NCBI GenBank assembly: GCA_041750915.1
Contig: JBGSYJ010000241.1
Coordinates: forward strand, 1,067-65,066
Direction: 5' to 3'
From: Thermoanaerobaculia bacterium
GTDB taxonomy: Bacteria > Acidobacteriota > Thermoanaerobaculia > Gp7-AA8
Length of the DNA: 64,000 nt
Shown: one piece after another, positions 6,504-63,873 of the stretch
Layout of the letters: the number at the start of each line of letters is the position of its first letter
Position numbering within the stretch: the first letter of the stretch is position 1
Translations under genes and position numbers: made by a program
Notes under the pieces: generated by a model
What the model was told of the DNA's origin: nothing
Seen by the model: only the letters and a program-made list of their open reading frames with translations
The model's database searches: none

Positions 6504-6505
6504 CC

Positions 6506-9731: not shown

Positions 9732-9912
9732 CGCTGATCTCTTGGCTCAACCATTCCATCAACTCTCTCAGGGCTAAGTCCAGAAGGCACTGTTATATTT
9801 CTTGCATCATCTCAAAACAATCCGAGAGCGCTTACCTTGTCGGCCGGCGCCCCCGCTCTATTCGTATCAAGATCGTTGCACTCCAGATCAGACGGAGACA
9901 TGGTAGACAGCG

Positions 9913-41777: not shown

Positions 41778-43406
41778 TTAAATTATTTTTTCAGACGAGG
41801 CATCAACAGTTGGAAAAGGAAGGTCAGCCTGCTTCGCGTCGAAGTGTTTCTTGAACTTGTGAAGAGTACTCTTTTCGAGATCTAGGTACGAAACCGGCAA
41901 CATCGCGACACTTGGAGTCGACGATTCTGTCGTCCATCTGATTGTGTTCCCGTCGTGATCTTTCCTTTCCCTGCGGATTCCAGCGGCTGTCGTCATCGAA
42001 AACACGTCCGCGTACCGACGAGGCCCGATGCCAATGAAAGGTCGCAACTCCACACGGTGTAGATCGGTGCAAGCAGCGATCCCGCACTCCACGCCAGCTT
42101 CAGGGAACCCGATTGCGTCGGCGTGAAGCTCCAGCGCCTGACTCTTCGGGTATGGCTCGATAAACAGCACCTCTTTGATACCTGCCGTGATTATCAAACG
42201 AGCACATTCATGACACGGGAACGTCGTCGTGAACAACCTCGCTCCCCGGATTGACCAGCCGACTCTTCCCGCGGCTATGATCGCTTCCATCTCAGCATGC
42301 GTCGTGCGCCCAAATTCCAGCAAATGCATGATTCGTGTTTTTCGCAGGGCTAACCGGGCCTGATCAAGCGTAGGAGGTGGGTTGTCGCCAAACCAGTTCG
42401 CTGCGCCCGCACTAGTCAGAATCTCTTCGAGAATTCGATCTGCGTGCTCATTCGTAGAATCTCGCTCTCGGCAAATGTCCCTTTCGTCGTAGTGATCGTT
42501 TGCACGGTAAAGACCGCCGCCGCCCTTCGGGACGTCGTTCCACCCGACACCGAGAATCTCACCGGTAGGCGCGACCAGAATCGCACCCACTTGGCGACCG
42601 AGCGCTCCAGAGGCGAGCGAACATGCGAAGGCATGAAACATGTACTGCTCGTCGGGAAGCGGTGTCTTGGAAAGATCTCCCAAGATCAACCGAACAAATC
42701 GGTCGACATCATCGAAAAGTTGTCCGTCTTTCTCTTCGTTTGCGAAGGAGACGAAGAAATCAGCGAGTTGAAACACATCCCTGAGCTTTTGTCCAAAGTC
42801 CCCAGCTTCTTCATCATCTCGCTTCGCCAGCCTCTGCGCTTCGTGAAGATGCTCAGCAAAATGCTCCGATCTTGTCGTCTCGCCGTGTTCTTTGCTGAAT
42901 CGATTCGCCAGCTTTTGGATCCGATCCTTCTCGCTGGCGAAGAGACTGATTAGAAAGAAACCATCGCCATAGACATTGCGAAGCAGGTTCACTTCTTCTG
43001 GTCGCTTCAACGACCGCAGAACGTAAGCCCGGCGATGAGGCTGCCCGCCGACCGCTTCACGGCGAACACCGATTTCACCGATGGCTGCCGCAGCCATTGC
43101 CGCGGCGTCTTTGCAGTGACGGCGGATCGCGTTCCCACCGTTCATGAATGTTTCGATCCGAAGCTCTTCCGTCGATGAGTCGAGAACGACGGGGTCACCC
43201 GACTCGCCGCATATCTCGTGGCGTTTCACGATCTCGGATATCAACTCGCTGATCGTGATTTCCTCAACCTCGTACTGGTAGTTCTTAAGCACATCGGCGA
43301 GCGTTCTGCTCAGGAGCATCAAATCCGACCCGAGGGCGCCAGCAAGGCCGAAGACGAGCTCTGTGTTTCGATATCCTCGCGCCGCAGAATCTGGTTCAGA
43401 TGACAT
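41778..43406 (-). CDS. Two-domain protein: N-terminal nucleotide-kinase-like region plus C-terminal CMP/dCMP deaminase zinc-binding domain (anti-phage dCTP-deaminase-like)
   Basis: Deaminase signature TTHAEMEAI ... FPCHECARLIITAGIKEV (HxE...PCxxC). 542 aa, with a ~250-aa N-terminal domain starting LVFGLAGALGSD. Confidence 0.55.
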   Translation of the reverse strand: MSSEPDSAARGYRNTELVFGLAGALGSDLMLLSRTLADVLKNYQYEVEEITISELISEIVKRHEICGESGDPVVLDSSTEELRIETFMNGGNAIRRHCKDAAAMAAAAIGEIGVRREAVGGQPHRRAYVLRSLKRPEEVNLLRNVYGDGFFLISLFASEKDRIQKLANRFSKEHGETTRSEHFAEHLHEAQRLAKRDDEEAGDFGQKLRDVFQLADFFVSFANEEKDGQLFDDVDRFVRLILGDLSKTPLPDEQYMFHAFACSLASGALGRQVGAILVAPTGEILGVGWNDVPKGGGGLYRANDHYDERDICRERDSTNEHADRILEEILTSAGAANWFGDNPPPTLDQARLALRKTRIMHLLEFGRTTHAEMEAIIAAGRVGWSIRGARLFTTTFPCHECARLIITAGIKEVLFIEPYPKSQALELHADAIGFPEAGVECGIAACTDLHRVELRPFIGIGPRRYADVFSMTTAAGIRRERKDHDGNTIRWTTESSTPSVAMLPVSYLDLEKSTLHKFKKHFDAKQADLPFPTVDASSEKII

Positions 43407-47953: not shown

Positions 47954-49375
47954 TTAGTTTGGTTGGTCGATGGTGTCAATCGGTGCTCCGGAGATGGCGA
48001 TGATGTCCTTGATCTCGAGGTCCTTCCCATTGCCTCCGATCCAGGGCGTCCAGTCTGGTTGGACGTTGAGCCACGAGAGTGGGTCCGCTTTGAGGAGCCC
48101 CCAGAATACTTCTGCGACGATGTTCCCGCCGGTGGGCCCGACGTGCTCGCCCCCATTGTCCTCTGCTGACTCGTTGAGGATGTAGAACCACAGTGGGTCG
48201 TGTCGGTCGCTGTTGATGGGAGTGATCCCGAGTGCACGCGCAACGGATTGCCCGGAGGGGAGACCGAGTCGCCAGCCTCGGACCAGGTTGAGTATTGCGA
48301 GGGGGTTTTCTCCGCCTGGTCCTGCTGGGATGGCGCGGAGTGCCCGGGCGAGCTTGATGTCGATGCGCCGGCTGGGCTGCAGTTCGCCTGCGCCGAAGTC
48401 GAAGTATCGGTTCCACTCGATCGTCCACATCGTGGGGAGGGGGCGAAACCCGCGAAGATCATCAAGCGGCCCGGGATTGGCGCTTCGTGGTAGGAAGATC
48501 GGCAGTGGCTGACCCCCGCGAGCCTCTTTGAGTGGTGTGTTGAGGTGGTACGCACCACGGATCATGCTATGGCCGAGCCGGTACGCGGCACCGGAGAACT
48601 CGACCGGGATGAAGGCATTCTTGTGGGGCTTGTAGAAGCGCAACTGTGGCGAACCGAGATCATCCTTTTTTGGGGCGATGCGCTCCCAGAGCTTGCGCCC
48701 CACGATGCGCGGGAGAAAATCATGGACGACCGCCCATTGGTAGTGCCATCGAACCTCGCGCTGGACCCGCTCGAAATGCTCGCGCTCGTTGAGATCTCCC
48801 CGCGGCACTTCCGCCATCATGCGGTTGTGGAACTTGAGGAACATGAGTTGGAACTGGCTGACGATGATGTTTTCATCATTGCGCGGATCACCGATGAGTG
48901 CGCGTCCCTGACTGTTGCGCTGCAAGTCATCCTCACCACCGTTGCTCCCTAGGAGGAACTGCCACCCCCCGCTCGACTGATCGTAGAGATAGGGCTGGTC
49001 ATCAACGCCACGACCATAGATACAATCCAAATCAAAGCGCGGTGAGCGAAAATTCACCAGCCGATTCGGATCATTCTGCCGCTGCAGACTCGACGTCGGA
49101 TCAAACGTGATGTCGTGATCAATGAACTGGCCAAAATACGTGTACCCCGACGGGATCTTCCTGTTATCAAGACCAGGATCAAAGGGCTCCGGCTCACTCA
49201 TCACATTCGACAAAGTCTCCAACTGCTGCAGCTTCGCCACCTCATCCTGCCCCGGGGGGATGTACGGTGGAAGCTTGCGAAACAAACGACCAAACGGACC
49301 CTCAAAGAAGGGAGAATGCGGAACCACACGCGTCGCGTCCTGAACAAGATCACTCCGACCATGATGCATAAACAA
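47954..49375 (-). CDS. Animal-haem-peroxidase (peroxidase-cyclooxygenase superfamily) protein
   Basis: YTYFGQFIDHDITF (distal His motif GQFxDHD). RNDENIIVSQFQLMFLKFHNRMM. AAYRLGHSMI (proximal His). Confidence 0.75.
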   Translation of the reverse strand: MFMHHGRSDLVQDATRVVPHSPFFEGPFGRLFRKLPPYIPPGQDEVAKLQQLETLSNVMSEPEPFDPGLDNRKIPSGYTYFGQFIDHDITFDPTSSLQRQNDPNRLVNFRSPRFDLDCIYGRGVDDQPYLYDQSSGGWQFLLGSNGGEDDLQRNSQGRALIGDPRNDENIIVSQFQLMFLKFHNRMMAEVPRGDLNEREHFERVQREVRWHYQWAVVHDFLPRIVGRKLWERIAPKKDDLGSPQLRFYKPHKNAFIPVEFSGAAYRLGHSMIRGAYHLNTPLKEARGGQPLPIFLPRSANPGPLDDLRGFRPLPTMWTIEWNRYFDFGAGELQPSRRIDIKLARALRAIPAGPGGENPLAILNLVRGWRLGLPSGQSVARALGITPINSDRHDPLWFYILNESAEDNGGEHVGPTGGNIVAEVFWGLLKADPLSWLNVQPDWTPWIGGNGKDLEIKDIIAISGAPIDTIDQPN

Positions 49376-49843
49376 CCCTCCTCCAACTCTTTCTTGTACG
49401 GGAGTGACGCGGGAGGAGAATTCCTTACTCCGGTTTGCCAGATTCCTGGACGGGCCCGTACGCCAAAGAGCTTCACGCCTGGAGGACAGGCGCGCGCATA
49501 ACTGCTGAACTCCACTCCAAAGACCGTCGATCTTGGAACTTGACTAAGGACGGGCACAAGAACGCCGCCGAGGCAATTGTTCCCAGATCTTTGACAATCT
49601 GTTCCTTGAGCATGACGCTGTTCGATCGGTAAGCCCGGCGTTTGCGAGGGCCCCCAAAGGTTGAACACCGCCAGTGTCACACCCTCAAGTCATGCAAACA
49701 ACTATTCACAGTTCTGCCCGGTTGATCACGGGCGACTCACAGACGACCGCGATCTTCGGGATTTTTCGCATCAGAGGTAAGGAAACGAGCGGTTCTGTCA
49801 CTCCTCAAGTAGCAATTCCCAACACATCAAGGAGGGACGACTC

Positions 49844-51703
49844 ATGGCATCTAAGAAAAGAGTGTCACGAAGGTCTGTGAAGTCACGCGTAAAGGAGGTG
49901 GCTCCGACCTCCCGTAGGCAGGAAAAGCTCAGCAAGGATGATCTTCCCCGGAAAGTGTTTGCGCAAGCCTCACCGCGTTCGATGAGTGGGGTCTCGCTGT
50001 TTGGCGGGCAAGAACAGATCAACGCCGATACCGTTCTGAACTTCTTTTCTCAGACCGACGTGATTATGGCTGCCGCCGCCCGGCTGGAAGACGCTGGGTT
50101 CGAGATCCTGCAGATCTCACCGATGACGATCAACATCGCCGGATCCCCCACGACGTATCGCAAAGCGTTTAACACCCAGCTGGTCGTCCTGGACAAGCCG
50201 GTCATCAAGGAGTCTGCGAAAGAGGACATCGCGCAGTTCATCGACAGCCCGGACACCACAATGCCCGGGCTCATTGAAACACGAGGGACAACATTCGAAG
50301 ATGTCCTCGAAGGCGTCGCGCTTGAAGAACCCGTGTATTTCATGGCCGCCTCCGCCTTTGCCCCGACGAAGGCATACTGGCACCTCCGGGTGCCCGGCGA
50401 TATTTCCTTATGCTGCAACGCGGACCGAGCGCACCGAGCGGGGATCACGGGAAAGGGAGTCAGAGTAGCCATGGTGGACAGCGGTTGGTACAAGCACCCG
50501 TATTTCGTCGGTCGCGGATACCGTGCCGCGCCGGTCGTCCTCGGACCCGCCGCCGTAAACCCCCTCAACGATGAGAGTGGGCACGGCACGGGTGAGTCCG
50601 CGAATATTTTCGCAAACGCTCCGGACGTGGAACTCCTCCCGGTCAAGATCAATTTCGTGAATAGCATCGGGGCGTTCAATGCTGCGGTCGGCCTCAATCC
50701 GGACATCATCACATGCAGCTGGGGGAGCAGCGTGCAAAACGGACCGTTGAGCGCCGCAAACCAAGCCCTGGCAGCAGCGATCGCGGCCGCCGTGGCTAGC
50801 GGGATCACCGTTATCTTCTCGGCAGGCAACGGCCACTATGGTTTTCCCGGGCAACACCCCGACGTCATCTCCGCCGGCGGCACCTTCATGAACCCGGACG
50901 AGACCCTGCGCGCCTCTGACTACGCCAGCGGGTTCATGAGCACTATCTACGCAAATCGTCGCGTGCCCGACTTGTGCGGGCTGGTAGGGATGCGCCCCAG
51001 GGCGATCTACATTATGCTGCCCTTGGAACCCGGCGGTCAGATCGACGTCGGCAATGCCGGAGGAACCCACCCCAACGGCGACGAAACGACGAACAACGAT
51101 GGGTGGGCCGCCTTTAGCGGCACATCAGCGGCCGCACCGCAGCTGGCTGGCGTCGCGGCACTCATGAAACAGGCCTGCTCCTCGCTAACACCCGCGGATA
51201 TCAAGGACATCATGCGGAAGACCGCACGTGACGTGACACAGGGAACGTGCAGCCCGAGCACCGGCGGCAATGCAGCTGTCGTCGGACCGGACCTTGCGAC
51301 GGGCGACGGTCTCGTCGACGCGCATAAGGCGGTCATGGTGGCCAAGGTCAAGTGTCTGGGGCCGATCATCACGCCCATCCGGCCCCCGATCCGGCCACCA
51401 ATCCAACCAATCACGGGACCCGTACGACCCATCGTGGGACCACAGCCCATCGAGCCCGTACGACCGCCAATTCAACCCATACGTCCTATCGAACCCATCA
51501 CACCAATACAACCAGGACCCATTCGCCCGGTGGAACCGGTGCGGCCGATCGCGCCGATTGTGAACCCGGGCCCCATCCCCCAACGCGAAGCGCCAGAGCA
51601 ACCAGGACCGTCGCAACAGCAGGAACAATCCAAGCTGAGTGCCGAAGATGTCACCACTCTGAGCAACATGATCATCGACGCAGAACTGGACCTAGAGAAA
51701 TAG
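49844..51703 (+). CDS. Subtilisin-like S8 serine protease with C-terminal proline-rich PIxP repeat tail
   Basis: Catalytic triad contexts VAMVDSGW (Asp), HGTGES (His), GTSAAAPQLAGVAALM (Ser). The C-terminus PIRPPIRPPIQPITGPVRPIVGPQPIEPVRPPIQPIRPIEPITPIQPGPIRPVEPVRPIAPIVNPGPIP is low-complexity. Confidence 0.8.
   Translation: MASKKRVSRRSVKSRVKEVAPTSRRQEKLSKDDLPRKVFAQASPRSMSGVSLFGGQEQINADTVLNFFSQTDVIMAAAARLEDAGFEILQISPMTINIAGSPTTYRKAFNTQLVVLDKPVIKESAKEDIAQFIDSPDTTMPGLIETRGTTFEDVLEGVALEEPVYFMAASAFAPTKAYWHLRVPGDISLCCNADRAHRAGITGKGVRVAMVDSGWYKHPYFVGRGYRAAPVVLGPAAVNPLNDESGHGTGESANIFANAPDVELLPVKINFVNSIGAFNAAVGLNPDIITCSWGSSVQNGPLSAANQALAAAIAAAVASGITVIFSAGNGHYGFPGQHPDVISAGGTFMNPDETLRASDYASGFMSTIYANRRVPDLCGLVGMRPRAIYIMLPLEPGGQIDVGNAGGTHPNGDETTNNDGWAAFSGTSAAAPQLAGVAALMKQACSSLTPADIKDIMRKTARDVTQGTCSPSTGGNAAVVGPDLATGDGLVDAHKAVMVAKVKCLGPIITPIRPPIRPPIQPITGPVRPIVGPQPIEPVRPPIQPIRPIEPITPIQPGPIRPVEPVRPIAPIVNPGPIPQREAPEQPGPSQQQEQSKLSAEDVTTLSNMIIDAELDLEK
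51360..51590 (+). repeat. Proline-rich PIxP imperfect tandem repeats inside the S8 protease gene
   Basis: Read directly from the translated sequence and the DNA periodicity (ccgatccggcc / ccaatccaacc / cccatcgagccc). Confidence 0.7.
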
Positions 51704-51751
51704 AAGGGGGTCAGTACGGGACAATCGAAGAGCGTCGCGACGACCAGACGC

Positions 51752-53677
51752 ATGCCGCGGGTACTTCTCGTGAGCATGCCTTTTGGCGCGCTTGAGCGTC
51801 CAGCGCTGGGGCTCAGCCTCCTCAAGGCCCGCCTGACGCTGGACGGCGTGGTGTGTCACGTGCGCTATCTCAATTTTCCGTTCGCAGAACTCATCGGGCT
51901 GGAACACTATCAATGGGTGACGCACGAACTCCCCTATACGGCCTTTGCGGGTGACTGGGCCTTCACCTCCGTCCTCTACGGTGATCGGCCCGAGGTCGAA
52001 GCAGCCTACATCCAAGAGGTACTCCGCAAGACGTGGCGACTCGGCGACACGGAAATCAACCGACTGTTAAACGTGCGTGCGCGCACACCGCTCTTTCTGG
52101 ACCACTGCATGGCAGCGATCCCTTGGGCGTCGTATGACGTGGTGGGCTTCACGTCCACGTTTGAGCAGAACATCGCCTCACTCGCCCTCGCCCAGCGAGT
52201 CAAGCAATCGCACCCGGATATCCTGATCGTGTTTGGGGGCGCCAACTGGGAAACGGACATGGGCCATGAGCTGCACCGACAGTTCCCGTTCGTCGACTAC
52301 GTGTGCAGCGGCGAGGCGGATGACAGCTTCCCCGCACTCATCCGCCAACTACAGCACACACCACGGCCGGTGGTGCGCGGGATCGTACACCGCACTACCG
52401 CTGGCGCGTCCGTGTTTACAGGGCCGGCACCAGTGATCAGCAAGATGGACGACCTGCCACTGCCGGATTTTAGCGACTACCTGCACGACCTCCAAGAGTC
52501 TTCCGCGGCCACGCCGATCATCCCCACGCTGCTCTTTGAAAGTGCTCGCGGATGCTGGTGGGGCGCGAAATCTCACTGCACGTTCTGCGGCCTCAACGGC
52601 GGCAGCATGGCCTTTCGGAGCAAGAGCGCCCGACGCGTCGTGGAGGAACTCACCACCCTGCGCGCACAATGGCCCAACGATCTTGCGGAGGCCGTCGACA
52701 ATATCTTGGACGTAGCGTACTTCAAGGATCTGCTGCCGGCACTGGCGCGTGCCCGACTCTCCTTGCAACTCTTCTATGAGGTCAAAGCAAACCTAAGTCG
52801 AGCGCAGGTACGCTTGCTCAGCGAGGCAGGCGTTCACCGCATCCAGCCCGGTATCGAAAGCCTCAACGACCACATCCTCACGCTCATGCGCAAGGGCACG
52901 ACCGCACTGCGCAACATTCAACTGCTCAAGTGGGCACAGGAGTATGGCGTCACCGTCGAATGGAACCTTTTGTACGGGTTCCCCGGCGAGACAATTACTG
53001 ATTACGCGGACATGCTCCGACTCCTGCGCCCCATTCGGTTCTTACGACCACCCTGCGCATGCGGGCCGATTCGACTGGACCGATTCAGCCCGTACTACAA
53101 CACGCCCCAAGCGTTTGGCCTGACGAACGTCACACCGATCAACACCTACCGATACCTCTACCCCTGTGATGAAGCAAGCCTGGCGCGGATCGCGTACTAC
53201 TTCGACTTCACCTACGAGGATACCGTCGACCCCACCGGCCATGCGGCATCAGTGATCGCGTACATCAACGACTGGCAATCCCACCCCGAGCACGGCAGCC
53301 TCTGGGCGCTCTCCACGCCTGACGCACTCGTGCTGCTGGACCAACGCTCAAGCGCCAGTCTCCCCATGCTCCGCCTCGTCGGGCTGGAACGCACTGCGTA
53401 CGAGTTCTGCGACGAAGCCCACCGGCTGAGCAGCGTCGTCGCAGCACTCCGTCGCACCTTCCCACAGGTCGCGTTTACCGAGGACGACGTACTCACGTTC
53501 CTGAATTCTCTGGTCGCGAACAACCTCATGGTCACGGACGGCGCACTATACCTGAGCCTCGCCATCTACTCACCACCGCGAGATACAATACCCGGCCATC
53601 AGTATCAGGACCACCGGCACGACCAGATCATCACGCACACCAAGGCAAGGGCGACCGCGCATACGGCCGACGCTTAA
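51752..53677 (+). CDS. B12-binding-domain radical SAM enzyme (RiPP-maturase-like)
   Basis: N-terminal cobalamin-binding-like domain (LLVSMPFGALERPALGLSLLKA). Cys motif ARGCWWGAKSHCTFCGLNG (Cx7CxxC). ~640 aa. Confidence 0.65.
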   Translation: MPRVLLVSMPFGALERPALGLSLLKARLTLDGVVCHVRYLNFPFAELIGLEHYQWVTHELPYTAFAGDWAFTSVLYGDRPEVEAAYIQEVLRKTWRLGDTEINRLLNVRARTPLFLDHCMAAIPWASYDVVGFTSTFEQNIASLALAQRVKQSHPDILIVFGGANWETDMGHELHRQFPFVDYVCSGEADDSFPALIRQLQHTPRPVVRGIVHRTTAGASVFTGPAPVISKMDDLPLPDFSDYLHDLQESSAATPIIPTLLFESARGCWWGAKSHCTFCGLNGGSMAFRSKSARRVVEELTTLRAQWPNDLAEAVDNILDVAYFKDLLPALARARLSLQLFYEVKANLSRAQVRLLSEAGVHRIQPGIESLNDHILTLMRKGTTALRNIQLLKWAQEYGVTVEWNLLYGFPGETITDYADMLRLLRPIRFLRPPCACGPIRLDRFSPYYNTPQAFGLTNVTPINTYRYLYPCDEASLARIAYYFDFTYEDTVDPTGHAASVIAYINDWQSHPEHGSLWALSTPDALVLLDQRSSASLPMLRLVGLERTAYEFCDEAHRLSSVVAALRRTFPQVAFTEDDVLTFLNSLVANNLMVTDGALYLSLAIYSPPRDTIPGHQYQDHRHDQIITHTKARATAHTADA

Positions 53678-53692
53678 AAGGAGCAGAATAAA

Positions 53693-54073
53693 ATGGCGAT
53701 CGCCAAAACTATCTCCGCTCAAGTCATCATTAAACCGACTACGTCGGTCGCGGAGCCCGTGACCGCGGCAAACGTGCACGAACTCAACTCAGCACCGGAT
53801 GTGGTGACCAAGATCCAGGACGCTTTCGCAAAAAACGGCTTCGAGGTCGGCAACGTCGTCGCGAGCACTTTCAGCATCACCGCGCCGGTGTCGACCTTTA
53901 AGAAAATGTTCGGCGTAGGCTTCGCCCGTGATGAGCGCGGCGGCATGGTCGTGCGTGGCGTACGAGACGCGCCGCGCGAACTGCCCAGAACACGACTCCC
54001 CAAGGCACTCGCCCAAGCTATCGCAGCGATCACGTTTGGGGAACCCCCGGACTTCGGACCAACGAACTTCTGA
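53693..54073 (+). CDS. Small protein (126 aa) between the rSAM and oxygenase genes; possible precursor/leader-like peptide
   Basis: Starts 16 nt after the rSAM stop. The VVTKIQDAFAKNGFEVGNV segment loosely resembles Nif11-type leader helices. No Cys. Confidence 0.3.
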   Translation: MAIAKTISAQVIIKPTTSVAEPVTAANVHELNSAPDVVTKIQDAFAKNGFEVGNVVASTFSITAPVSTFKKMFGVGFARDERGGMVVRGVRDAPRELPRTRLPKALAQAIAAITFGEPPDFGPTNF

Positions 54074-54084
54074 CAACGTCGATC

Positions 54085-54759
54085 ATGCCCGTACAAGCTA
54101 CCGCAGCACGACACAAGACTCCTCCCGCGGAGCATCAACGATTCGCGAACACGGATCCTATTCGTGAGTCGCCGTTGATGCGCACCGGTGGTTGGGCCGT
54201 CTACGAAGGCCTCGTTGACCGCCTCTACCGGTCGGCAATGCTCGCGGAAGCGCTCACGCTCGCACCTGGTGCCAAGGATTGGTGGGTGCCCTCATCGGAC
54301 GGCGAAGAGCACCGCGGCGGAGTGCCGGCACGACGGTTCAAGAGCACGATCGGTGGGCCACTCCAGACGGCATTCTACGGGTCAGCCTGGACCCTCGAGT
54401 TTCTTGGTCAACTCACGACGCCGACGATTGTGCGCACTGGCGGCGCCGGCACGTACTCCTACTACACGCGCCCAGGTGATTTTCTTGCGCTGCACCGGGA
54501 CATCATCGCGTGTGATGTGGCGCTGATCACCTGCTTGCAGAACGATGATGGCATGGGGGGAGGCCTGTGCCTGTACCCGCATCGCATTGCAGAACCGCTC
54601 TCCGCTATCCGTGCCACACCAGAGCATGGAGCCGTCAGCGTCCAGCTTCAGGCCGGGCAAACGATCGTTCTCTACGGCGGCCTCCTCCCGCACGCACTGC
54701 TGCCGCTCACCCGTGGTCAAACACGAATCGTCTCGGTGCTCTGCTATCAAACCTCGTAA
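54085..54759 (+). CDS. 2OG-Fe(II)-oxygenase/cupin-like protein
   Basis: HxD...H facial-triad candidates ALHRDII and LLPHALLPL, followed by a conserved Arg (TRGQTRIV). Confidence 0.45.
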   Translation: MPVQATAARHKTPPAEHQRFANTDPIRESPLMRTGGWAVYEGLVDRLYRSAMLAEALTLAPGAKDWWVPSSDGEEHRGGVPARRFKSTIGGPLQTAFYGSAWTLEFLGQLTTPTIVRTGGAGTYSYYTRPGDFLALHRDIIACDVALITCLQNDDGMGGGLCLYPHRIAEPLSAIRATPEHGAVSVQLQAGQTIVLYGGLLPHALLPLTRGQTRIVSVLCYQTS

Positions 54760-55939
54760 GCCGCCGCGGTTCCGCCCCCCAGCATCACCCAGTTGACGGC
54801 ATTGAGAATCCGAGAGCGAAAACAGACGTTGTGGAAAATCGCCACGATCATCAGCGCAGCGCTGCCCTGCGTTGGGCGCGATGCTGGCAGCCGGGTACTT
54901 GGGAATGTACGAACTCGTGACCGAGTACCTGACGCTCGCGTACTTGTACCATCGTGCTGAGGACGAGATCGCGGCAACCGTCCGCTGTTATCTCAGGGAG
55001 TAGCTATCTAGCGAATTCTCAGCGCCCCGCAGCACGCCGAACGCCACGAGCGGGCTGTCTCGATCAAAGGATGTCTCAAAGCGTGTCTGGCCATGTGCCC
55101 CTGATGCAGGGTCCTTACACAATCTATTCTCATCCAACGATTTGCGTAGGTTGCCTAGCCGCTCGGCCTCCTGATTGGCCATCAGGTTCCGCCTAGCCCA
55201 GCGAAAACTGATTAAGCTGCACGTAGCCCGCATCACGACGTAGACGCCGATGATCCAGCGGTGGCGGCACGCAGCTTCACCGACGAGTTCGAAAAATTCT
55301 CGATGGCGGGTCATCGACGAAGGCGCTGCCTCCTCTTGCCGCGAGATGTGACAAAAAGAACACTCCGGGATATTCGACGCGAACTATTCGTGCCGTGCAC
55401 CGGAGAATCCCTCGGTTACGGAGGATCGCCAAACATCTCTACGAATTCAGCCGGAAAGTTCCTCAGAATGTAAGGTTCTGATGCCATGAGGGGCGGCGCA
55501 TCCACAGCGAGTAGAGGCAGCGTTCATCTCTTGCGCGACTGAGCCCTGATACGCATATAGCAGGCGAGGACCGACGCGGTGTTGAGGCATGGATTGTCGA
55601 GGAAAGGAGCCTGCCATGGAGAAGTACTACGCAGCATTCTATGCCTTCCCATTGGACGCGCGCTCGTTTATAGCGTCAGGGTCGGGTCCGCTCACTCCGG
55701 CTGCAGACTTGATTCTGATGCGGTGACTGGTGCGGATGATCTCGATCCGACGCCGCACGAACGAGACAATGGGACTGCTGACTCAGACGTTACACAGGAC
55801 CCCATCGATTAGCGGCGGCTAAACGCCGCAAGGAATTCGCTCGCCCATGTTGAAAATGCCTGCCAATGGGTGATCCGTTGGTTCACGCGAAGGGAGAAGG
55901 ACTCCCTCGCAGCGGTGGCCTGAACCCAGGCGGCCCTGA

Positions 55940-57410
55940 TCACAACGACGCTTGGCTCAGTCGCCGCAAAGCCGCCTGCGCCACCTGTCGGTCACTGTGA
56001 GGTATTCTTTGGCCTTGAATGAGTTGCACCGTTTCCGTGCCCTTCCCAAGCAAGACGACCACCCCGTCAGGACGCGCGGCCTGAATGGCTGCTTCGATCG
56101 CTGAACATCGGTCCAGAATGACGCGCACGCGACCCGACGTGGAGCCGGTCGTCACTCCCTTCATCATGTCGCTGATAATCGCAGCCGGATGCTCTGAGCC
56201 TGGATTATCGCTCGTGAGGATGCAATGCTCAGAACCTGCGACCGCCGCCCGGGCCATCAACGGCCGCTTTCCTTTGTCGCTGTTCTGGCTGCACCCCAAT
56301 ACCACGACGCGTCGGCGCCGCCCAGCCAATGGCGCCAATGCCTCCAGGACTGCTGTTACGCTCTCCGGGGTATGAGCGTAGTCGACGTACACGTCTATTC
56401 CACTATTACTGTCTAAATATTCAAGTCGTCCGAATCCGATTGGCATGCCGAAGGCCCTCGATTGCGACATCTACGCCGACGAGTTCCTGCGTCAGCGCGA
56501 ACGCCCCCAACAGGTTGTACAGATTGTGCTTGCCAAGTAATGGAGTGAGGAGTTCCCTGCCACAAAGCGAAAGACTCATGCCATGGGGAGTGAAGCGATA
56601 CTCATCAGGCCGAATATCGCCGTTATCGAGACCATACGTGATCACTCGCCCACGGACCATCTTTCGGATCTCACGACCGATCGGATCATCAATGTTCAAG
56701 ACAATGACGCAATCCGGGGTTTGAAGGGATGAGTCGATGAAGAGTCGCGCCTTCGCGGCTGCGTATGCTTCCCATCCACCGTGGTATTCCAGGTGATCGG
56801 AGCCAAGATTAGTAAATACCACTCCGGAAAATTTCAGGCCGTGCAGTCGGTTTTCGGCAATGCCAATCGAGCTGGCCTCCAGCACCACCTTGGTAGCACC
56901 GTTCCCGAGCATGTGGCGCAACAGACCATGAAGCTCGAAGGGTTCCGGTGTTGTATTGCTGCTGGGTCGATGCCCCTCCGGTGATTTGCGTATGAGGGAA
57001 CTTATCATGCCGATGCGAACGCCCGCATAGCGCAGGACATCGTGAATCAAATGGCAGACCGTGGTCTTTCCCTTTGTCCCAGTCACACCATACAGTGCCA
57101 GTGCATCGTGAGCGTTCTCAAAGAAATTCGCCGCCATCAACGCATATGCCTGTTGCGGGCACTGCACGATGATTCTGCACGCAGAAGGTTCGGATTGGGC
57201 ATCAGCGTCATCAGTCCCGACGAGAACACCGGACGCTCCTGCGCTGAGTGCCGCGTTCTCACTGCTCGTTGGCATCCACTTCAAGCCCAGCTTTCCGAAA
57301 ATCGCCCCCGGCCGAATATTGTTCGGATGCATTGCTAATGAGGACACTTCCAGTTCTTCGTCGATCTGTGCGAGAACATCAATGCCCGACATCAATTCGC
57401 GAAGCTTCAT
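55940..57410 (-). pseudogene. Mur ligase family protein (MurE-like; CapB/PgsB-like role possible) split by a frameshift near 56440
   Basis: Upstream ORF has the P-loop GVTGTKGKTT and the middle domain. Downstream ORF 55940..56470 has the C-terminal DYAHTP motif. The two ORFs overlap by 50 nt in different frames. Confidence 0.65.
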
Positions 57411-58264: not shown

Positions 58265-59392
58265 TCACGCTGCAGTCTGGATCACTCCACGGCCGCTTGA
58301 ATTCCTAATCACGGTTCCAAACGATCGGCTGATGGCGATGAGATGTTCCAGCAGGGCATCCGCGTCATGCCCGTAGAGAATTGCCGGCTGATAGCGACCA
58401 CGAACGGGAACAATCTCCACGGACCGCACATGATGGTTCGCGATCTTCAGCTTTACGAGCATGTTGTCCCCCCAGTAAGAATGATCATGACCAAAGATAA
58501 AGTTTCCGAGAGAATAGAAGATTGGGCGCTGCCGGTAAATCTCAATGCTCCCCGGAACATGCGGATGATGTCCAAGTATCACGTCGGCGCCGCAATCGAC
58601 GAAATCACGAGCGAGTTCAACGAGCCGGGGCCACGGAGTCGCACGGTTCTCTAGGCCCCAGTGGATGGACAAAACTAGAACATCCACGGACGCTCGAATA
58701 CGGCTAATATCCTGCCCGACGACGAGCGGATTGAGTGGCGCAACCCCGCAATCGCGAGTGCTGGCATAAATCCAGTCAGGGCCAACCATCGAATACCCCA
58801 GGAACCCGATGGTTTCGCTACCTATCGAGATGACGGCTGGCGACCGTGCATCCTCAAGGCAGACGCCAGCCCCTACGATTGCGATGCCGCTTTCGCGCAA
58901 CGCCTCTAAAGTATCGTGGAACGCTAGCTCTCCGTAGTCAAGCGCATGGTTGTTCGCAAACGAGAGTACGCGAAAGCCGGCGGTTGCCATCGCTTGTGCG
59001 TGGTTAGGGCTGGCCTGATAATTAATATCATTGGAAGCGGGACGTCCTCGACGGGAGAGGGGACACTCAAGATTGCCGAACACCATATCGGAGCCACGCA
59101 GTTCATCCGCCATAGCCCGAAACACGTAATTTGCGTCGTTCTCCACCGCCTTCGGAAGTTCGACTGGGAGGCTCGTTGCCGCATGCGACGTCGCGTGAAT
59201 ACCTTGAGTGGAACGATCAAGAGAAGCTAGCCATTGATGACTTTCTGACGAATTGATGAATGGGATCTTGTAGTTGGACTCTAAACCAATCACACACGAT
59301 GAGACTTCAGGATAGTGGTAGAAGACTCGCGGTGGTTGCAACCGACGATCCAACATGATGTCGCCCACTGCGGAAATCGTTACCGAGCTCAC
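58265..59392 (-). CDS. capA: CapA/PgsA-family poly-gamma-glutamate synthesis protein (metallophosphatase fold)
   Basis: ISAVGDIMLDR, FGNLECPL, SFANNHALDYG and ILGHHPHV are CapA family motifs. Confidence 0.7.
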   Translation of the reverse strand: MSSVTISAVGDIMLDRRLQPPRVFYHYPEVSSCVIGLESNYKIPFINSSESHQWLASLDRSTQGIHATSHAATSLPVELPKAVENDANYVFRAMADELRGSDMVFGNLECPLSRRGRPASNDINYQASPNHAQAMATAGFRVLSFANNHALDYGELAFHDTLEALRESGIAIVGAGVCLEDARSPAVISIGSETIGFLGYSMVGPDWIYASTRDCGVAPLNPLVVGQDISRIRASVDVLVLSIHWGLENRATPWPRLVELARDFVDCGADVILGHHPHVPGSIEIYRQRPIFYSLGNFIFGHDHSYWGDNMLVKLKIANHHVRSVEIVPVRGRYQPAILYGHDADALLEHLIAISRSFGTVIRNSSGRGVIQTAA

Positions 59393-62300
59393 TCCAGAGT
59401 CACCGAGGTCGACTGCTTAGCACCGATCGACGCCTGAACATGGCTGGTTCCAAGCGAGATCTGGTAAGACCCGGGCGGCAGGCCAGACAGGCTGAATGGA
59501 ACACCAGCCTTGACAGAAGGCCAACTTCCGATCCGTTGAAGCAACGCCGTCAGGTTCCAGCCGTTGGGGCCCAGAATCTGCGGCGTACCCTCGAACTTGG
59601 AGTTCACGAGTAATGCGCCACTGGGCCCCATGCGAACCATTATCCCCTTGAGCCATTGATCAGAGGTGAGCCAGGTTCCTAAAACCCAACCCTCTGTATG
59701 CATCACGGCGTAACGGAGTTGACGCGGTGGTATATCGCGAAACCGCATTTTCACCCAACCCGTCGAGTCGGTCGTAGCAATCATCATGTTACCGGTGTCA
59801 GTTTCTACAAACACGAATGCATTTGAGCCGGCACTGCCGCTAGCTGCCAGGACCTGCACGCGTATCTCATCGCGGTTAAGGTTTCCCAGCTCAAGCCTGA
59901 CCGGCTGCGACTCGCGTCCCAATTCGATCTGGACCTCGATAACATCGCTGAAGTCATCGCCGAGCCTAGCTCGCAATCGGTGGTTACCGGGAAGCAGTCC
60001 CCCCATCGCAAAGGTGCCGTCTGACTTTGTCACCGCGCTCCCTGGTCCACCTATCTCCTCGACCGTAGCGAATCGCGCTGGGCGCGAATCCCCGTCGACA
60101 ACCATACCCCGGATAGTAGACGCGTCGTACTGGAGCATGATCGACTGCTGCGACTGAGATTCCACCTTGACTGTCTTGGACGGGGTGGTTCCGTGCTCGG
60201 CACCGATCCACCGTACGTTCCAAATTGCAGGATTGATCTCGCTCGTCTCGAACGTGCCGTCAAGGGCAACCTGTGTGGAAACCTGACCGGAGCCGCCGAG
60301 GACGCGCTGTTGTGTCGCTCCAAGCGGCGAAGACTGATTGTAAATCACACCTGCAAGCGCCCCGGCGGCGGCAGGAGTCCAGACGAGCGTGCCGCCAGCT
60401 GCAGGGCGGTCACCGATCAGCACTCTGCCGCTAACGATGACGTCCTGCACTGAACACTCGACCTCAAAAATGTCATCTTGGCGAGGAATCTCAACGCTGT
60501 GTTCGCAAACGACGGTTCTGTCACGCGACAGGCTGACCCGCACGGGTCCAGGCGGTACTTGGCGGATGGTCGCGGATCCATCCTGCATGGCTGCGGATAA
60601 GCGGTCAATTTCACCCGTATTCTCGTCTATCGAGATGTTCGCGGTCCCAGTGAAATCCGAATTAGATGTAACTCGAACTGTCGTTCCCTTCTCGAGTCGA
60701 ATATCGCCAATGTCTGACAGCCCAGTGCTGCCGTCGACCGTGACGGAACGAAAGGCACGTGCATAACCGGGTAGATCAAAGCGCAGAAGCGAGGGCTGGG
60801 GCCCAATCCCTCGGAGAGTAAACATCCCTTCGTCTTCACTTAGTGTTCGCAACGTATTACCTGATGACCACGAGAGCAATGGTCCTCCGGTAATCGGTCG
60901 CGTTGTCCACACTGCCACGCCTTTCGCAGGCATTCCATCTTCGGTGACGACACGCCCGCGAATCCGGTTACCCGTTTCGGGGTGTAAGACTCCAAGGTCA
61001 AGATCTTCCCCTCGCCTTCCTTGGACTTCGCGCAGCAAGCTCAGAGTGGACGGCGAGACAAACTCAAGACGCAAGGCCTTATCCGGTTCCACCGCCACCT
61101 GGAAATCGCCACCAACGATCCGCTCCTCTCGCGAGTGCCCGCCATCGAGAATTCGGACTGCTGCGCCTTCGATCTGTTCGCCCGAAGCCTCAATGAATCG
61201 TCCAGTTACAACGAACGCGCGAGTGACTTCAACTGTCACCTCCCGCGACAGCGGCGCGCCAAGTGTTTTCTTAAAATCAAGGTACCCGCTTGCCTCGACA
61301 GCCACATCGAGGGGATTGGCAACTGACACGTCGTCCAGCACGGCCAATCCCTTTTTGTTTGAGATAGCCCTTCGGCCGAACTTCGCGCTAACCAGTGCGC
61401 CCACTACAGGCCTCAGGTCAGTGTCGTCAACAACACGAACGGTGAGCTGCTCGCCGCTCACGAGAACTATTGGCCCCAGGTCCATGTGCTGGTCGCCTAG
61501 GGACACCTCCGTGAGACGTGGCGCAAAGCCCTCCCGCCGCATCGCCAGAACGAACTTGCTTCGTGCTGGTAAGTTTTTCAGCATCCATCTGCCGTCCTCG
61601 GTCGTTTTTCCTCGACGCGCCGCGATCACGCTAGCTCCCGACAACCAGCCTTCGGCGGTGACTTCGACGCCCTCAAGTGGATGATCCTTTCCATCGACCA
61701 CCGTGCCCGTGATGGAGAACCCCTCGCTCATTGTGATTACGGCCGGGAATTCGCCGATTTTCAGAGGAACGGCTTTGGCCGCATGGTTAGCTTCAGTGAG
61801 TACCAGCGTGAGCGACGCGCGATTCGGAAGGGATTCAATCTGGGCAATTCCCTGTCGGCTGATATACTGCGCGGCAAGTTGCGGATTTCCTTTATCAAGG
61901 ATCGTCATGATCGCAATATTGGCGTCCAACGGCGTTCCATCTGCGCTTTCCACCCGAAAACTCTGGCTCGTCGCGGGCAAGATGACGAGCGGGCTCTTCG
62001 AGGCAAGCGACGGTGTTACACTCGCCCACCAAGTGCCTTCATCACGCCCCAGCACCCGCACCCTCCATTCCGCGTCTTGCGCGTATGGAACCTCGATCAC
62101 CCCATTTGCTGGAACAGGCCAAGAAGGCAACATCGATTCAGGAACCTCAAGCCACATGGCCTTTGGTGCTGCACGCAACCGGAAGGCCTCTGCGCTCCTT
62201 TTTGGCTCAACTTCAAGCCTCATTTTTCTGACATCATCATCCGGACTCATCTTCGGATCTAATGGGCGATTGGGCGAGAAGCGAAACGGCGGGATTTCGT

Positions 62301-62463
62301 CAGACCATGCCCATCCAAACGCTAGCTCTCCGGGAGCCGAGTCCGACATCGCCGTCCAAACCCCGTCCGCATAACTAACGACCTGGAGTCTCTCCGATTT
62401 CGGCCGATCGCCACCATGGGCCGAGGCCGCAACCAAGAGCGCGACCGCTGCGATCCATCTCAT
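59389..62463 (-). CDS. Large secreted protein with multiple carboxypeptidase-regulatory-like (transthyretin-fold) domains
   Basis: Signal peptide MRWIAAVALLVAASAHG at the internal Met (62463); the ORF extends upstream to 62808. Repeated motifs ITGTVVDGKDHPLEGVEV, IRGRVVTEDGMPAKGVAV, IRGMVVDGDSRPARFATV. Confidence 0.55.
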   Translation of the reverse strand: MRWIAAVALLVAASAHGGDRPKSERLQVVSYADGVWTAMSDSAPGELAFGWAWSDEIPPFRFSPNRPLDPKMSPDDDVRKMRLEVEPKRSAEAFRLRAAPKAMWLEVPESMLPSWPVPANGVIEVPYAQDAEWRVRVLGRDEGTWWASVTPSLASKSPLVILPATSQSFRVESADGTPLDANIAIMTILDKGNPQLAAQYISRQGIAQIESLPNRASLTLVLTEANHAAKAVPLKIGEFPAVITMSEGFSITGTVVDGKDHPLEGVEVTAEGWLSGASVIAARRGKTTEDGRWMLKNLPARSKFVLAMRREGFAPRLTEVSLGDQHMDLGPIVLVSGEQLTVRVVDDTDLRPVVGALVSAKFGRRAISNKKGLAVLDDVSVANPLDVAVEASGYLDFKKTLGAPLSREVTVEVTRAFVVTGRFIEASGEQIEGAAVRILDGGHSREERIVGGDFQVAVEPDKALRLEFVSPSTLSLLREVQGRRGEDLDLGVLHPETGNRIRGRVVTEDGMPAKGVAVWTTRPITGGPLLSWSSGNTLRTLSEDEGMFTLRGIGPQPSLLRFDLPGYARAFRSVTVDGSTGLSDIGDIRLEKGTTVRVTSNSDFTGTANISIDENTGEIDRLSAAMQDGSATIRQVPPGPVRVSLSRDRTVVCEHSVEIPRQDDIFEVECSVQDVIVSGRVLIGDRPAAGGTLVWTPAAAGALAGVIYNQSSPLGATQQRVLGGSGQVSTQVALDGTFETSEINPAIWNVRWIGAEHGTTPSKTVKVESQSQQSIMLQYDASTIRGMVVDGDSRPARFATVEEIGGPGSAVTKSDGTFAMGGLLPGNHRLRARLGDDFSDVIEVQIELGRESQPVRLELGNLNRDEIRVQVLAASGSAGSNAFVFVETDTGNMMIATTDSTGWVKMRFRDIPPRQLRYAVMHTEGWVLGTWLTSDQWLKGIMVRMGPSGALLVNSKFEGTPQILGPNGWNLTALLQRIGSWPSVKAGVPFSLSGLPPGSYQISLGTSHVQASIGAKQSTSVTLE

Positions 62464-63521
62464 TGCCACTCCGCCAATATGAGGCGTCCAGCGGTGGGAG
62501 CTCCATCGTTTCGCCAGCGGGCGGAGAGATTCATTAGAAACGCGACTTCCTTTTCCATTAGATCGGCTCGCAACGAGGCGACGTCGGTAGGTGCCGTAAA
62601 CGGGAGCCGCAGGACACTGGCCGGCCTGTCCCGATGCAGTACGACCATTGACCAGTGAGTAATGCCATCGATCACCTCCCGAACCACTAAGGCTGGCCCC
62701 TCGGGCATAGCGAGCACATCGTCGACGACACGCTTCTGCTTGAGCCACTGCATTCGAGCTTCTGGGTCCTTCATGTATAAGAGTTGCTGCGGCTGGGAAA
62801 GTTCGCACTCGTCAAAAACATTCAACGGTTCTGTCTGCCACACATGGGCTAATTTGCCGTCTTTTTGATAGAGAAAAACACCAGGCTCGACGCCCGGTAC
62901 GACAACATACGAGCCGTCCGGAAAAAACCGAACTGCCCCGTGACTGATAAACCCACACCGCCCCAAGATCTTCTTGTCGGGTCCGACTGAGGAAAAATGG
63001 ACGGGATGAAGATCCTTCAGTCCACTGCTCAGGGTTCCCGTCCAAGCGATCGCTCCATCCGGAGCCCACACTCCGTTTTCCCGCCGAGAACCGAGCAACA
63101 GGAGCTTGTCCCCATGGACGTCGATATCCACGACCATGTCAAAAGGGAGGAGATGACCGGACGACTCCGTGAGTTGCTTCCAAGCAACCCCGGCGACCGT
63201 GTGTGCCGTTACTAGGTAATCGGTAGAGAGCCCTAGCATGCTGCATTCGAGGCACTGGCCCCTAATCCCGCGTACGACATTCTTCAGCACGTGGAGGTCC
63301 TCGGTGCGAACTTTGACAACACTCTCCTCGAAGGACGTCATGTAAAGGATGCCTGGCGACTCCCACCGCAAGTCGAGTGCGTACGCAGCTTTGCCGGCAA
63401 GAGGACTGTCAGAAATGATGCGAAGCCTGTTCGCTTCCGGTGCACGGTTTCCAATCAGCACGATCCCACTTCCGATCAACAGGAGTGTGAAGGCTGATGC
63501 AAAAGCGTGCATTTTCATCAT
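62460..63521 (-). CDS. Secreted hypothetical protein (353 aa)
   Basis: Signal peptide MMKMHAFASAFTLLLIGSGIVLIG. The stop overlaps the downstream gene start. Confidence 0.45.
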   Translation of the reverse strand: MMKMHAFASAFTLLLIGSGIVLIGNRAPEANRLRIISDSPLAGKAAYALDLRWESPGILYMTSFEESVVKVRTEDLHVLKNVVRGIRGQCLECSMLGLSTDYLVTAHTVAGVAWKQLTESSGHLLPFDMVVDIDVHGDKLLLLGSRRENGVWAPDGAIAWTGTLSSGLKDLHPVHFSSVGPDKKILGRCGFISHGAVRFFPDGSYVVVPGVEPGVFLYQKDGKLAHVWQTEPLNVFDECELSQPQQLLYMKDPEARMQWLKQKRVVDDVLAMPEGPALVVREVIDGITHWSMVVLHRDRPASVLRLPFTAPTDVASLRADLMEKEVAFLMNLSARWRNDGAPTAGRLILAEWQ

Positions 63522-63597: not shown

Positions 63598-63873
63598 CTA
63601 CTCTGCACACGTCACGGCCGGTTGTCCGGGCTCAGAACAACACCAGGCTGTACTCGGGCAGCACCAAGCCTCCATTGTGTAGCAGGACTCTCCTCCCTGT
63701 GTGTCCCAGCAGTACGTACACCCTGGACCATCCCCTCCGCACAGGTACCAGCCGCTGGTCATGTCGTATAATGGAGCTGTCTCCTCAGCATAATCACAAG
63801 AGTAGGCTTCAACCGGGGACGGAGTCAAAAGCGCGGCCGCAGACAACGGTAGCAATCCCTTGAGCACTCGCAT
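63598..63873 (-). CDS. Small secreted cysteine-rich protein (91 aa, 11 Cys in the mature part)
   Basis: Signal peptide MRVLKGLLPLSAAALLTPSPVEA. CDY...CGGDGPGCTYCWDTQGGESCYTMEAWCCPSTAWCC. Confidence 0.45.
   Translation of the reverse strand: MRVLKGLLPLSAAALLTPSPVEAYSCDYAEETAPLYDMTSGWYLCGGDGPGCTYCWDTQGGESCYTMEAWCCPSTAWCCSEPGQPAVTCAE

Follow-up and report, generated by a model that had tools for sequence, protein, structure and literature searches.

A candidate operon for radical SAM tailoring of a (Pro-Ile/Val-Xaa)n repeat carried by a subtilase

The stretch of DNA analysed here (the window; 64,000 nucleotides of contig JBGSYJ010000241.1 from a Thermoanaerobaculia bacterium) contains four co-directional genes that encode, in this order, an S8-family subtilase (S8), a radical S-adenosylmethionine enzyme (rSAM), a small protein of 126 residues (p126) and a predicted Fe(II)/2-oxoglutarate (2OG) oxygenase of 224 residues (p224). 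We propose that they probably form a self-contained, horizontally mobile operon that tailors a ribosomal (Pro-Ile/Val-Xaa)n repeat, which here would be the C-terminal tail of S8. In the model that best accounts for the sequences, the cassette is a system for rSAM maturation of a ribosomal product, with an unusual substrate in the form of a leaderless triplet repeat borne on a protein. The identities of the genes, their fold and family memberships, the intact catalytic residues and a strict, specific and broad linkage between the rSAM and the repeat are established by the data below. The initial annotation of this DNA had pointed to four neighbouring genes with tiny gaps on one strand, and their coordinates (Table 1), the plus strand and the gaps of 48, 15 and 11 nt, an operon-like arrangement, were all reproduced.

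By its sequence, the rSAM is a genuine enzyme of the peptide-maturase type and not a housekeeping enzyme of the HpnJ or BchE type, because it matches the NCBIfam model TIGR03975 (RiPP maturation radical SAM C-methyltransferase; RiPP, peptide synthesized by the ribosome and modified post-translationally) over the full length and carries a PoyC-type Cx7Cx2C cluster motif. Residues 4-605 align with model positions 1-606 of 606 at 657.3 bits (cut-off 281.85, E 2.2e-197), whereas the housekeeping models stay far below their cut-offs, with 81.7 bits for HpnJ (577.6), 57.1 for BchE (481.4) and 50.4 for HpnR (650). The initial annotation had described a protein of about 640 residues with an N-terminal cobalamin-binding domain, typical of peptide-modifying maturases, and had proposed family models as a check; this description holds throughout, as the protein of 641 residues also matches the Pfam domains B12-binding (PF02310, 37.4 bits, cut-off 32.1) and Radical_SAM (PF04055, 55.8 bits). 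The cluster motif called unusual at that stage is present (CWWGAKSHCTFCG, residues 268-280; CWWGAKSHC-TF-C, that is, Cx7Cx2C), but it is not peculiar to this gene: it is conserved without exception in the 81 family members examined and is a hallmark of PoyC, as a review describes it as the distinctive or unique motif of that enzyme (PMC11285071). The invariance is not independent evidence, since the set of 81 was partly picked using the Cx7Cx2C peptide itself. PoyC methylates the Cβ of Ile3 and of Val5, Val10 and Val21 of its precursor in an iterative manner (PMC11285071), and the function predicted for the rSAM is most likely the C-methylation of a ribosomal peptide. A sequence search of the rSAM against PDB chains gave no match.

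What, then, would this enzyme act on? The S8 protein consists of a basic N terminus, a prodomain, a catalytic domain, a P-I-x repeat, a spacer and a terminal helix, and its odd C-terminal repeat, for which the label 'PIxP' chosen by the initial annotation is a fair one, is real and non-random. In the stretch that follows Cys504-Leu-Gly-Pro (residues 506-580), P[IV] dipeptides occur 20 times within 76 residues, compared with 8.2 ± 1.9 in composition-preserving shuffles, none of which reached 20 in 100,000 attempts. The triplet P-[I/V]-x predominates, and PP[I/V]x and GP[I/V]x units also occur. The periodicity is held at the protein level and does not reflect recent slippage, because the DNA is non-repetitive (no tandem repeat beyond a 12-nt × 2.3 array) and synonymous codons are mixed: all four Pro codons are used, and so are several codons each for Ile, Val and Glu. 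A search for DNA-level repeats as the cause of the tail thus yielded nothing meaningful. If the repeat adopted a polyproline-II conformation, its three residues per turn would line up Pro, Ile/Val and x along three distinct stripes, which is a purely geometric consideration.

The repeat is also a constant feature of the protease family. The nearest S8 homologues with the junction motif carry a repeat tail in 116 of 118 cases, and all S8 tails share a common plan, in which an AKV[KR]CLGPI junction is followed by the P-[I/V]-x repeat, a spacer rich in Gly, Ser, Glu and Gln, and a near-universal terminal motif (L-S-x-E-D-V-x-x-L-x-x-M/L-I-I-x-S-E-x-D). Across loci, the length of the repeat and the residue x vary freely, and P and I/V are kept. 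Two loci, L058 and L039, have the unit x-[I/V]-T with Pro often replaced, which leaves Ile/Val as the only residue common to every repeat variant.

The evidence that ties this repeat to the rSAM comes from comparative genomics. With rSAM peptides as the sole seed and one genome scanned per species, 80 loci were returned. The order S8-rSAM-p126-p224 is kept in 42 of them, all with the repeat in the S8 tail, and two further loci end at the rSAM and retain p126 and p224. The hosts of the 42 loci are Acidobacteriota, Chloroflexota, Deinococcales, alpha-, beta- and gamma-proteobacteria, Thermoleophilia, and metagenome-assembled genomes (MAGs) of Desulfobulbaceae and Nitrospiraceae; a single one is an isolate, Deinococcus sp. 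SM5_A1 (L018). Identity to the proteins of the window is 70-85% for the S8 catalytic domain, 50-64% for the rSAM, 35-60% for p224 and 30-43% for p126. In an all-versus-all clustering of the open reading frames (ORFs) of the loci, only the four cassette genes were common, apart from antisense shadow ORFs, and no conserved transporter, epimerase, regulator or other extra gene emerged. Independent metagenome contigs contain the same cassette between unrelated flanks, so that the comparison of genomic context once suggested for the rSAM orthologues delimits a conserved unit of four genes. The search for a short leader-type precursor in the flanks, another early suggestion, came out negative: among ORFs of at least 25 residues in 49376-49860 and 54740-55960, none is conserved by tblastn against the 80 related loci.

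The linkage extends beyond the protease. A sister clade of rSAMs, which clusters beside the S8-linked clade and shares 42-46% identity with the rSAM of the window, has neither an S8 of the window type nor p126, and most of its members keep a p224 homologue directly downstream. In five of these loci (L038, L042, L044, L049, L052), the immediate upstream gene encodes a protein of 147-204 residues that consists almost wholly of P-I/V-x repeat, examples being MPRPEPIEPVEPIEPIEP... and PPIEPPILPPIEPPIQ.... In L042, the repeat protein, the rSAM and p224 are encoded at 7500-7964, 8001-9836 and 9852-10511. L055 carries the repeat as the tail of an unrelated protein of 513 residues, and L058 as the tail of a second S8 with only 29% identity to the S8 of the window; in the remaining glycosyltransferase/SPASM loci of the sister clade with enough upstream contig, the repeat has an ORF of its own, located a few kb upstream. 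A strict scan for the repeat (at least 9 P[IV] per 40 residues without a stop codon, in all six frames of the 1.13 Mb of loci) was positive in 46 loci, where every match lies upstream of the rSAM and on its strand; the remainder of the 1.13 Mb gave zero matches. Altogether, in about 60 related loci from many phyla, the repeat always stands upstream of this rSAM clade, as an S8 tail, as a stand-alone protein of about 150 residues or as the tail of another protein.

Such repeats are missing from more distant TIGR03975 members, of which four (L072, L073, L074, L078) have a conserved short peptide with the pattern 'KKLSVKKQxIKDL...VKGG' in the upstream slot, which looks from its sequence like an unannotated leader-GG precursor family. 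As this slot holds the substrate in canonical members, the repeat occupies the substrate slot in the clade studied here. The coordinates of the Lys-rich peptides are 7813-7947 in L072, 7836-7973 in L073, about 600-698 in L074 and about 7556-7675 in L078, and their hosts belong to Acidobacteriota, Rokubacteria and Methylomirabilota.

Two further arrangements were seen beside related rSAMs. In the Myxococcota MAG locus L045, a pentapeptide-repeat protein, (I-D-P-K-Q)n, of 368 residues (5860-6966) and an ORF of 343 residues (6973-8004) precede the rSAM, and the former may be another repeat-substrate variant. A third architecture combines an (x-[I/V]-T)/(P-I-x) repeat protein with giant glycosyltransferase/rSAM-SPASM fusions (about 1050-1140 residues), a second SPASM rSAM and then the B12-dependent rSAM; it is found in L058 (1694-3742) and in L039, L046, L048, L050 and L057 (repeat ORFs at about 2.4-3.9 kb). 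The combination of Thr-rich repeats and glycosyltransferases suggests O-glycosylation.

Returning to the protease itself, Asp212, His247 and Ser428 of S8 are invariant in the alignments, and the oxyanion residue Asn329 is invariant in the alignment of 21 loci and at least 90% conserved in that of 36 proteins. Mean column identity of the catalytic domain across phyla is 75%, and the family is a large one, comprising at least 3196 clusters of homologues at E≤1e-30. Neither the sequence nor the family consensus shows an evident signal peptide. In the AlphaFold2 (AF2) model, an alpha/beta prodomain (about residues 30-165) is predicted with confidence and is joined to the catalytic domain by a low-confidence linker (166-194); the model ends in a helix at residues 600-612 with a predicted local distance difference test (pLDDT) score of about 86. 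This helix belongs to an amphipathic motif (LSAEDVTTLSNMIIDAELDLEK) that the initial annotation did not mention; read by eye, the C termini of about 119 of 120 S8 homologues conform to the consensus L[ST]xxD[VI]xxLxxM/L-I-I-x-S-E-x-D. By analogy with bottromycin, the helix may be a recognition ('follower') element. The idea that it is a targeting peptide for a microcompartment or encapsulin was dropped because the gene lists of the loci contain no linked shell genes. The initial annotation saw in S8 a plausible leader peptidase with a repeat tail; protease and tail are both confirmed, and since the tail is the best substrate candidate, 'leader peptidase' is probably an inadequate description.

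The small protein p126 exists as annotated and has no Cys. Its role as a candidate precursor was rejected, as its sequence identifies it as a free-standing paralogue of the prodomain of S8. A profile of the p126 family aligns with that of the S8 prodomain over 123 columns (hhalign, 97.9%, E 6e-13), and 11 of 24 p126 orthologues match the Pfam family Pro-kuma_activ (best E 8.6e-6; p126 of the window alone scores 17 bits against a cut-off of 23.5). In addition, p126 is present in every S8 locus with downstream sequence and absent from the loci that lack S8. Its most conserved part is the extreme C terminus (...VTFxxPPDFGPxNF). The C termini of subtilase propeptides occupy the active-site cleft, and the simplest role for p126 would be that of a trans-acting chaperone or inhibitor of S8 whose C terminus lies in this cleft. 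The S8 N-terminal domain and p126 are related to the pro-kumamolisin activation domain; their closest known counterparts are the propeptides of subtilases and sedolisins, which include I9-type intramolecular chaperones, and the predicted succession of cis prodomain, low-confidence linker and catalytic domain in S8 resembles a zymogen. Unlike in these proteases, there is a second copy of the prodomain in trans with a PPDFGPxNF C terminus of its own, which is unusual.

The fourth protein, p224, had been annotated as cupin- or 2OG oxygenase-like, and by fold and active-site residues it is indeed an Fe/2OG oxygenase: it has a double-stranded beta-helix fold, an HxD...H facial triad and a basic 2OG-binding residue, with the HxD...H...R pattern (His137-x-Asp139, His203, Arg214) invariant. 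It scores 17.6 bits with the Pfam family 2OG-FeII_Oxy_3 (PF13640; cut-off 27), has no match in NCBIfam, and its homologues have no precomputed Pfam domain. Its fold is similar to those of prolyl 4-hydroxylases (P4Hs; HIF-PHD, Pseudomonas EF-Tu P4H, viral collagen P4H) and of the BesD/Hal family of amino-acid hydroxylases and halogenases, with only 14-21% identity, and no family model covers it. Because of the fold similarity to the P4H/PHD prolyl hydroxylases, p224 may hydroxylate the Pro of the repeat; hydroxylation of Ile/Val is an equal alternative. The gene accompanies the rSAM in most loci and is missing from the S8 loci L006, L007, L013 and L017, mostly with atypical tails, and from L039 and L058, which have x-I-T repeats; in all of these except L017, the repeats are atypical or poor in Pro.

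On this basis, the following sequence of events can be proposed. S8 (619 residues) would be made in the cytoplasm as a zymogen with a cis prodomain and a tail of about 115 residues that comprises repeat, spacer and helix. The PoyC-type rSAM would then methylate unactivated carbons of the repeat unit by unit, with the Cβ of Ile/Val as the likeliest target given the reported PoyC chemistry and the presence of Ile/Val in every repeat variant, and p224 would hydroxylate the repeat, plausibly at Pro or alternatively at Ile/Val. In this scheme p126 would work on the protease as a folding chaperone, an inhibitor or both, and not on the repeat. The product would be a protease that bears, or cleaves off from itself, an alkylated, hydroxylated and protease-resistant rod of the polyproline-II type. 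We infer from the sequence comparisons that the linkage is one of enzyme and substrate; likewise inferred are which residues are modified, that the helix serves as a 'follower', what p126 does and what the biological function would be. A more general version, to which we would give somewhat less than an even chance, is that the cassette represents a widespread new class, in which a PoyC-type rSAM and a prolyl hydroxylase-like oxygenase turn a leaderless P-I/V-x repeat, free or grafted onto another protein, into a poly-C-methylated, hydroxylated polyproline-II-type rod.

How well do other explanations fare? In a conventional RiPP system, a short precursor would be encoded elsewhere or have been missed, S8 would be the leader peptidase, and the Pro-rich tail would be a linker or anchor of a kind common in subtilases. 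This would agree with the outgroup loci, as the TIGR03975 family normally acts on short leader-bearing peptides, and with the use of S8 proteases as leader peptidases in other rSAM systems, to one of which S8 has a weak resemblance (QhpE model, 40.5 bits); furthermore, the scan of the window for NHLP/Nif11-type ORFs was exhaustive only within 49376-55960. We nevertheless regard it as unlikely, because no small ORF of the flanks is conserved in any related locus and the flanks vary around four genes that travel together. The repeat, found nowhere else in the 1.13 Mb, is joined to at least three different host proteins, always beside this rSAM, and in the sister clade, where S8 is absent, a stand-alone repeat gene sits exactly in the precursor position. 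The sister clade also bears on the thought that p126 is the precursor after all, in which a long leader resembling a prodomain would precede a conserved core at the C terminus (PPDFGPxNF), the latter being modified by rSAM and oxygenase and released by S8. In favour of this, p126 adjoins the rSAM in every locus of the S8 clade, its C-terminal motif is its most conserved part, and long structured leaders are described for proteusins (PMC10858898). However, p126 is homologous to the S8 prodomain and to Pro-kuma_activ, it is absent from every sister-clade locus even though rSAM, p224 and repeat are kept there, and its near-invariant C terminus aligns with the end of the cis prodomain, where this runs toward the mature protease, which fits the tail of a product-like inhibitor better; a precursor role for p126 is therefore highly improbable.

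The repeat could also have the role of a partner (for instance a scaffold, a regulator or a docking rod), with the rSAM and the oxygenase modifying the S8 catalytic domain, another protein or a small molecule. Class B rSAMs are known to methylate folded proteins and small molecules as well (the family list includes the methyl-coenzyme M reductase glutamine methyltransferase and PhpK), and a special role is hinted at by how highly the S8 catalytic domain is conserved. Against this stand the retention of rSAM, repeat and p224 in the sister clade without S8, the best family match of the rSAM, which is to peptide maturases and not to small-molecule families, and the canonical members that hold their substrate gene in the same upstream slot, so that we consider such a partnership quite unlikely. 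A housekeeping role for the rSAM, as a hopanoid HpnJ/HpnR-type or BchE-type enzyme in a coincidental neighbourhood, has a negligible probability: its weak, sub-threshold matches to HpnJ, HpnR and BchE are expected of any class B rSAM, the scores given above already refute the assignment, and the synteny of the four genes is kept across many phyla despite unrelated flanks.

Several points nonetheless weigh against tailoring of the repeat by the cassette. Gene neighbourhood is not proof of a relation between enzyme and substrate, and the linkage could mean partnership. The choice of modified residue and atom is an extrapolation by analogy, with PoyC and fold similarity as its sole sources, and the AF2 model gives no confident structure for the repeat (residues 510-594 appear unstructured, pLDDT <50). 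Recognition is a further difficulty: the stand-alone repeat proteins have neither a leader nor the terminal helix, and for this reason the helix cannot be a general follower. The PqqD- and RiPP recognition element (RRE)-like signal in the C-terminal domain of the rSAM (TIGR03859, residues 550-593, E 3.6e-4, 20.4 bits) is weak and lies under the cut-off of 46, being suggestive only. A region-wise comparison of this domain between clades revealed no co-adaptation with the presence or absence of the terminal helix, a result that is uninformative because identity falls proportionally across all regions. Moreover, the S8 catalytic domain is far more conserved than the rSAM and p224, suggesting that the protease has a constrained target of its own, which the model leaves unexplained. 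Finally, the loci share no conserved exporter, and nothing in the data points to a particular biological role.

Table 1. Features of the four-gene cassette (positions in the window)
Feature	Position	Strand	Residues or length	Basis
S8 subtilase gene	49844-51703	+	619 aa	ORF and translation; Pfam Peptidase_S8 (PF00082), 81.7 bits (cut-off 21.8)
S8 N-terminal prodomain (predicted)	49931-50338	+	about 30-165	AF2 model and profile match to p126 family
S8 catalytic domain	50429-51358	+	196-505	Alignments
(Pro-Ile/Val-Xaa)n repeat, proposed core	51359-51583	+	506-580	Dipeptide count versus shuffles
S8 C-terminal amphipathic helix motif	51635-51700	+	598-619	Conservation and AF2 model
rSAM gene, class B (cobalamin-dependent), PoyC type	51752-53677	+	641 aa	TIGR03975
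rSAM cobalamin-binding domain	51968-52339	+	73-196	Pfam PF02310
rSAM Cx7Cx2C [4Fe-4S] cluster motif	52553-52588	+	Cys268, Cys276, Cys279	Sequence
rSAM weak PqqD/RRE-like stretch in C-terminal domain	53399-53530	+	550-593	TIGR03859
p126 gene, protease-prodomain paralogue	53693-54073	+	126 aa, no Cys	
p224 gene, Fe(II)/2OG oxygenase, hydroxylase type	54085-54759	+	224 aa	

Around the operon, an Rfam search for riboswitches gave no match at E≤1, and no convincing consensus sites for promoters or terminators were found. Divergent from the cassette lies a gene on the minus strand (47954-49375) for a protein of 473 residues with an animal-haem-peroxidase domain (Pfam PF03098, E 2e-18), which is not kept beside the cassette in other loci. 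On the other side, also on the minus strand, murE (UDP-MurNAc-tripeptide synthetase; 55940-57410) is split into two overlapping ORFs, of which 57410-56421 covers the N-terminal 329 residues (model positions 1-313) and 56470-55940 the C-terminal 176 (331-483); this points to a frameshift, which could mean a pseudogene or an assembly error. About 4.6 kb downstream of the cassette, the minus strand encodes a large outer-membrane protein resembling CarboxypepD_reg/TonB-dependent receptors (59389-62808), and genes of this type are found near the cassette in about ten Acidobacteriota loci (L003, L004, L021, L037, L040, L052, L054, L055, L057, L081). Such genes are numerous in Acidobacteriota, and their proximity may therefore be due to chance. 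The Cys-rich peptide that the initial annotation had set apart as distant (63598-63873, minus strand) is a protein of 91 residues whose N-terminal segment is signal-like and whose C-terminal half contains 10 Cys; it is indeed about 9 kb away on the opposite strand, with no link to the cassette seen, and the flanks of the cassette vary between loci. Further upstream (41778-43406, minus strand), a protein of 542 residues combines a cytidine/deoxycytidylate deaminase domain with a match to MafB19-like deaminases in a toxin-like architecture.

Membership in a known defence system was considered and rejected. In PADLOC-DB 2.0, S8 has only a generic 'subtilase' match (E 1.6e-9) and rSAM, p126 and p224 have none, and defence-like neighbours are inconsistent across loci. 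Those observed include a patatin and a C11 peptidase with a TPR-CHAT protein in L082/L083 (1-1365, 10046-14900) and an AIPR abortive-infection protein in L042 (11665-13516).

If the proposal is correct, iterative C-methylation of the PoyC type would extend from the rare proteusins of sponge symbionts to a cassette of thousands of environmental bacteria, whose variants in metagenomes of soil and water belong to Acidobacteriota, Chloroflexota, Deinococcota, Proteobacteria and further groups. It would act on a substrate of a new kind, namely a triplet repeat without a leader, forming either a whole protein or the tail of one, and would provide a bacterial counterpart to the collagen-style tailoring of repeats. 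As a second example of an rSAM-matured repeat effector, next to that of the HXS system, it would make the tailoring of protein-borne tripeptide repeats by rSAMs a broader principle. Three unannotated families (the p224 oxygenase, the p126 trans-prodomain and the P-I-x repeat proteins) would receive a first function. Enzymes that install residues of the tert-leucine or β-methyl-isoleucine type, together with hydroxy residues, on programmable repeats would also open up a route to rigid, protease-resistant peptide rods.

Finally, we would like to place the cassette into the context of known systems. No NCBIfam or Pfam model reaches its cut-off for the repeat proteins, p126 or p224, and a description of the cassette was not found in the full-text literature searched, whose coverage is thin for subscription journals, so that an earlier description is possible. 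Closest in enzymology is polytheonamide biosynthesis, in which PoyB and PoyC are enzymes of the same type, with a B12-binding and an rSAM domain (the latter with Cx7Cx2C in PoyC), and in which O2-sensitive rSAMs are likewise paired with an Fe/2OG oxygenase (PoyI). The Ile and Val residues that PoyC methylates iteratively at Cβ (PMC11285071) are also the invariant ones of the repeat. Unlike the polytheonamide cluster, however, the cassette has only four conserved genes, without an NHLP/Nif11 leader, rSAM epimerase, dehydratase, N-methyltransferase, dedicated C1 peptidase or transporter, and its putative core is a low-complexity triplet repeat that has no leader, varies in length and is either attached to a protease or a protein of its own. 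NHLP and Nif11 models gave no match to the cassette or to the repeat proteins, and the lack of such a leader and of an epimerase places the cassette outside the proteusins.

In logic, the closest system is HXS, whose maturases HxsB and HxsC are SPASM-type rSAMs and not B12-dependent class B enzymes. There, rSAM enzymes mature an effector with His-Xaa-Ser tripeptide repeats that blocks the entry of phage DNA, and HxsA-D likewise combine a protein-borne tripeptide repeat with adjacent rSAM maturases and a small accessory protein (PMC13128918). HXS has five HxS repeats, compared with 20-40 P-I/V-x units here; its HxsA is periplasmic and binds peptidoglycan, and it has neither a protease nor an oxygenase. 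The HxsB and HxsC families are not among the NCBIfam matches of the cassette, which has a single class B rSAM and a P-I/V-x instead of an HxS repeat, so that the resemblance is one of logic and not of membership. A single rSAM acting on many copies of a motif is also known from TigB, in which the Val of numerous TVGG motifs is modified repeatedly by TigE to give poly-cyclopropylglycine (PMC9062424); TigE belongs to the rSAM-SPASM enzymes and makes C-C bonds in a short, leader-bearing precursor, in contrast to the class B rSAM and the P-I/V-x protein tail described here. In bottromycin biosynthesis, the class B rSAM C-methyltransferases BotRMT1-3 have Val, Pro and Phe as targets in a precursor that is recognised through a C-terminal follower in place of an N-terminal leader (PMC11285071), and the conserved helix stands at the corresponding place behind the repeat. 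The eight-residue core of bottromycin, its actinomycete multi-enzyme cluster and its macroamidine and thiazole chemistry, by contrast, set it apart from the cassette.

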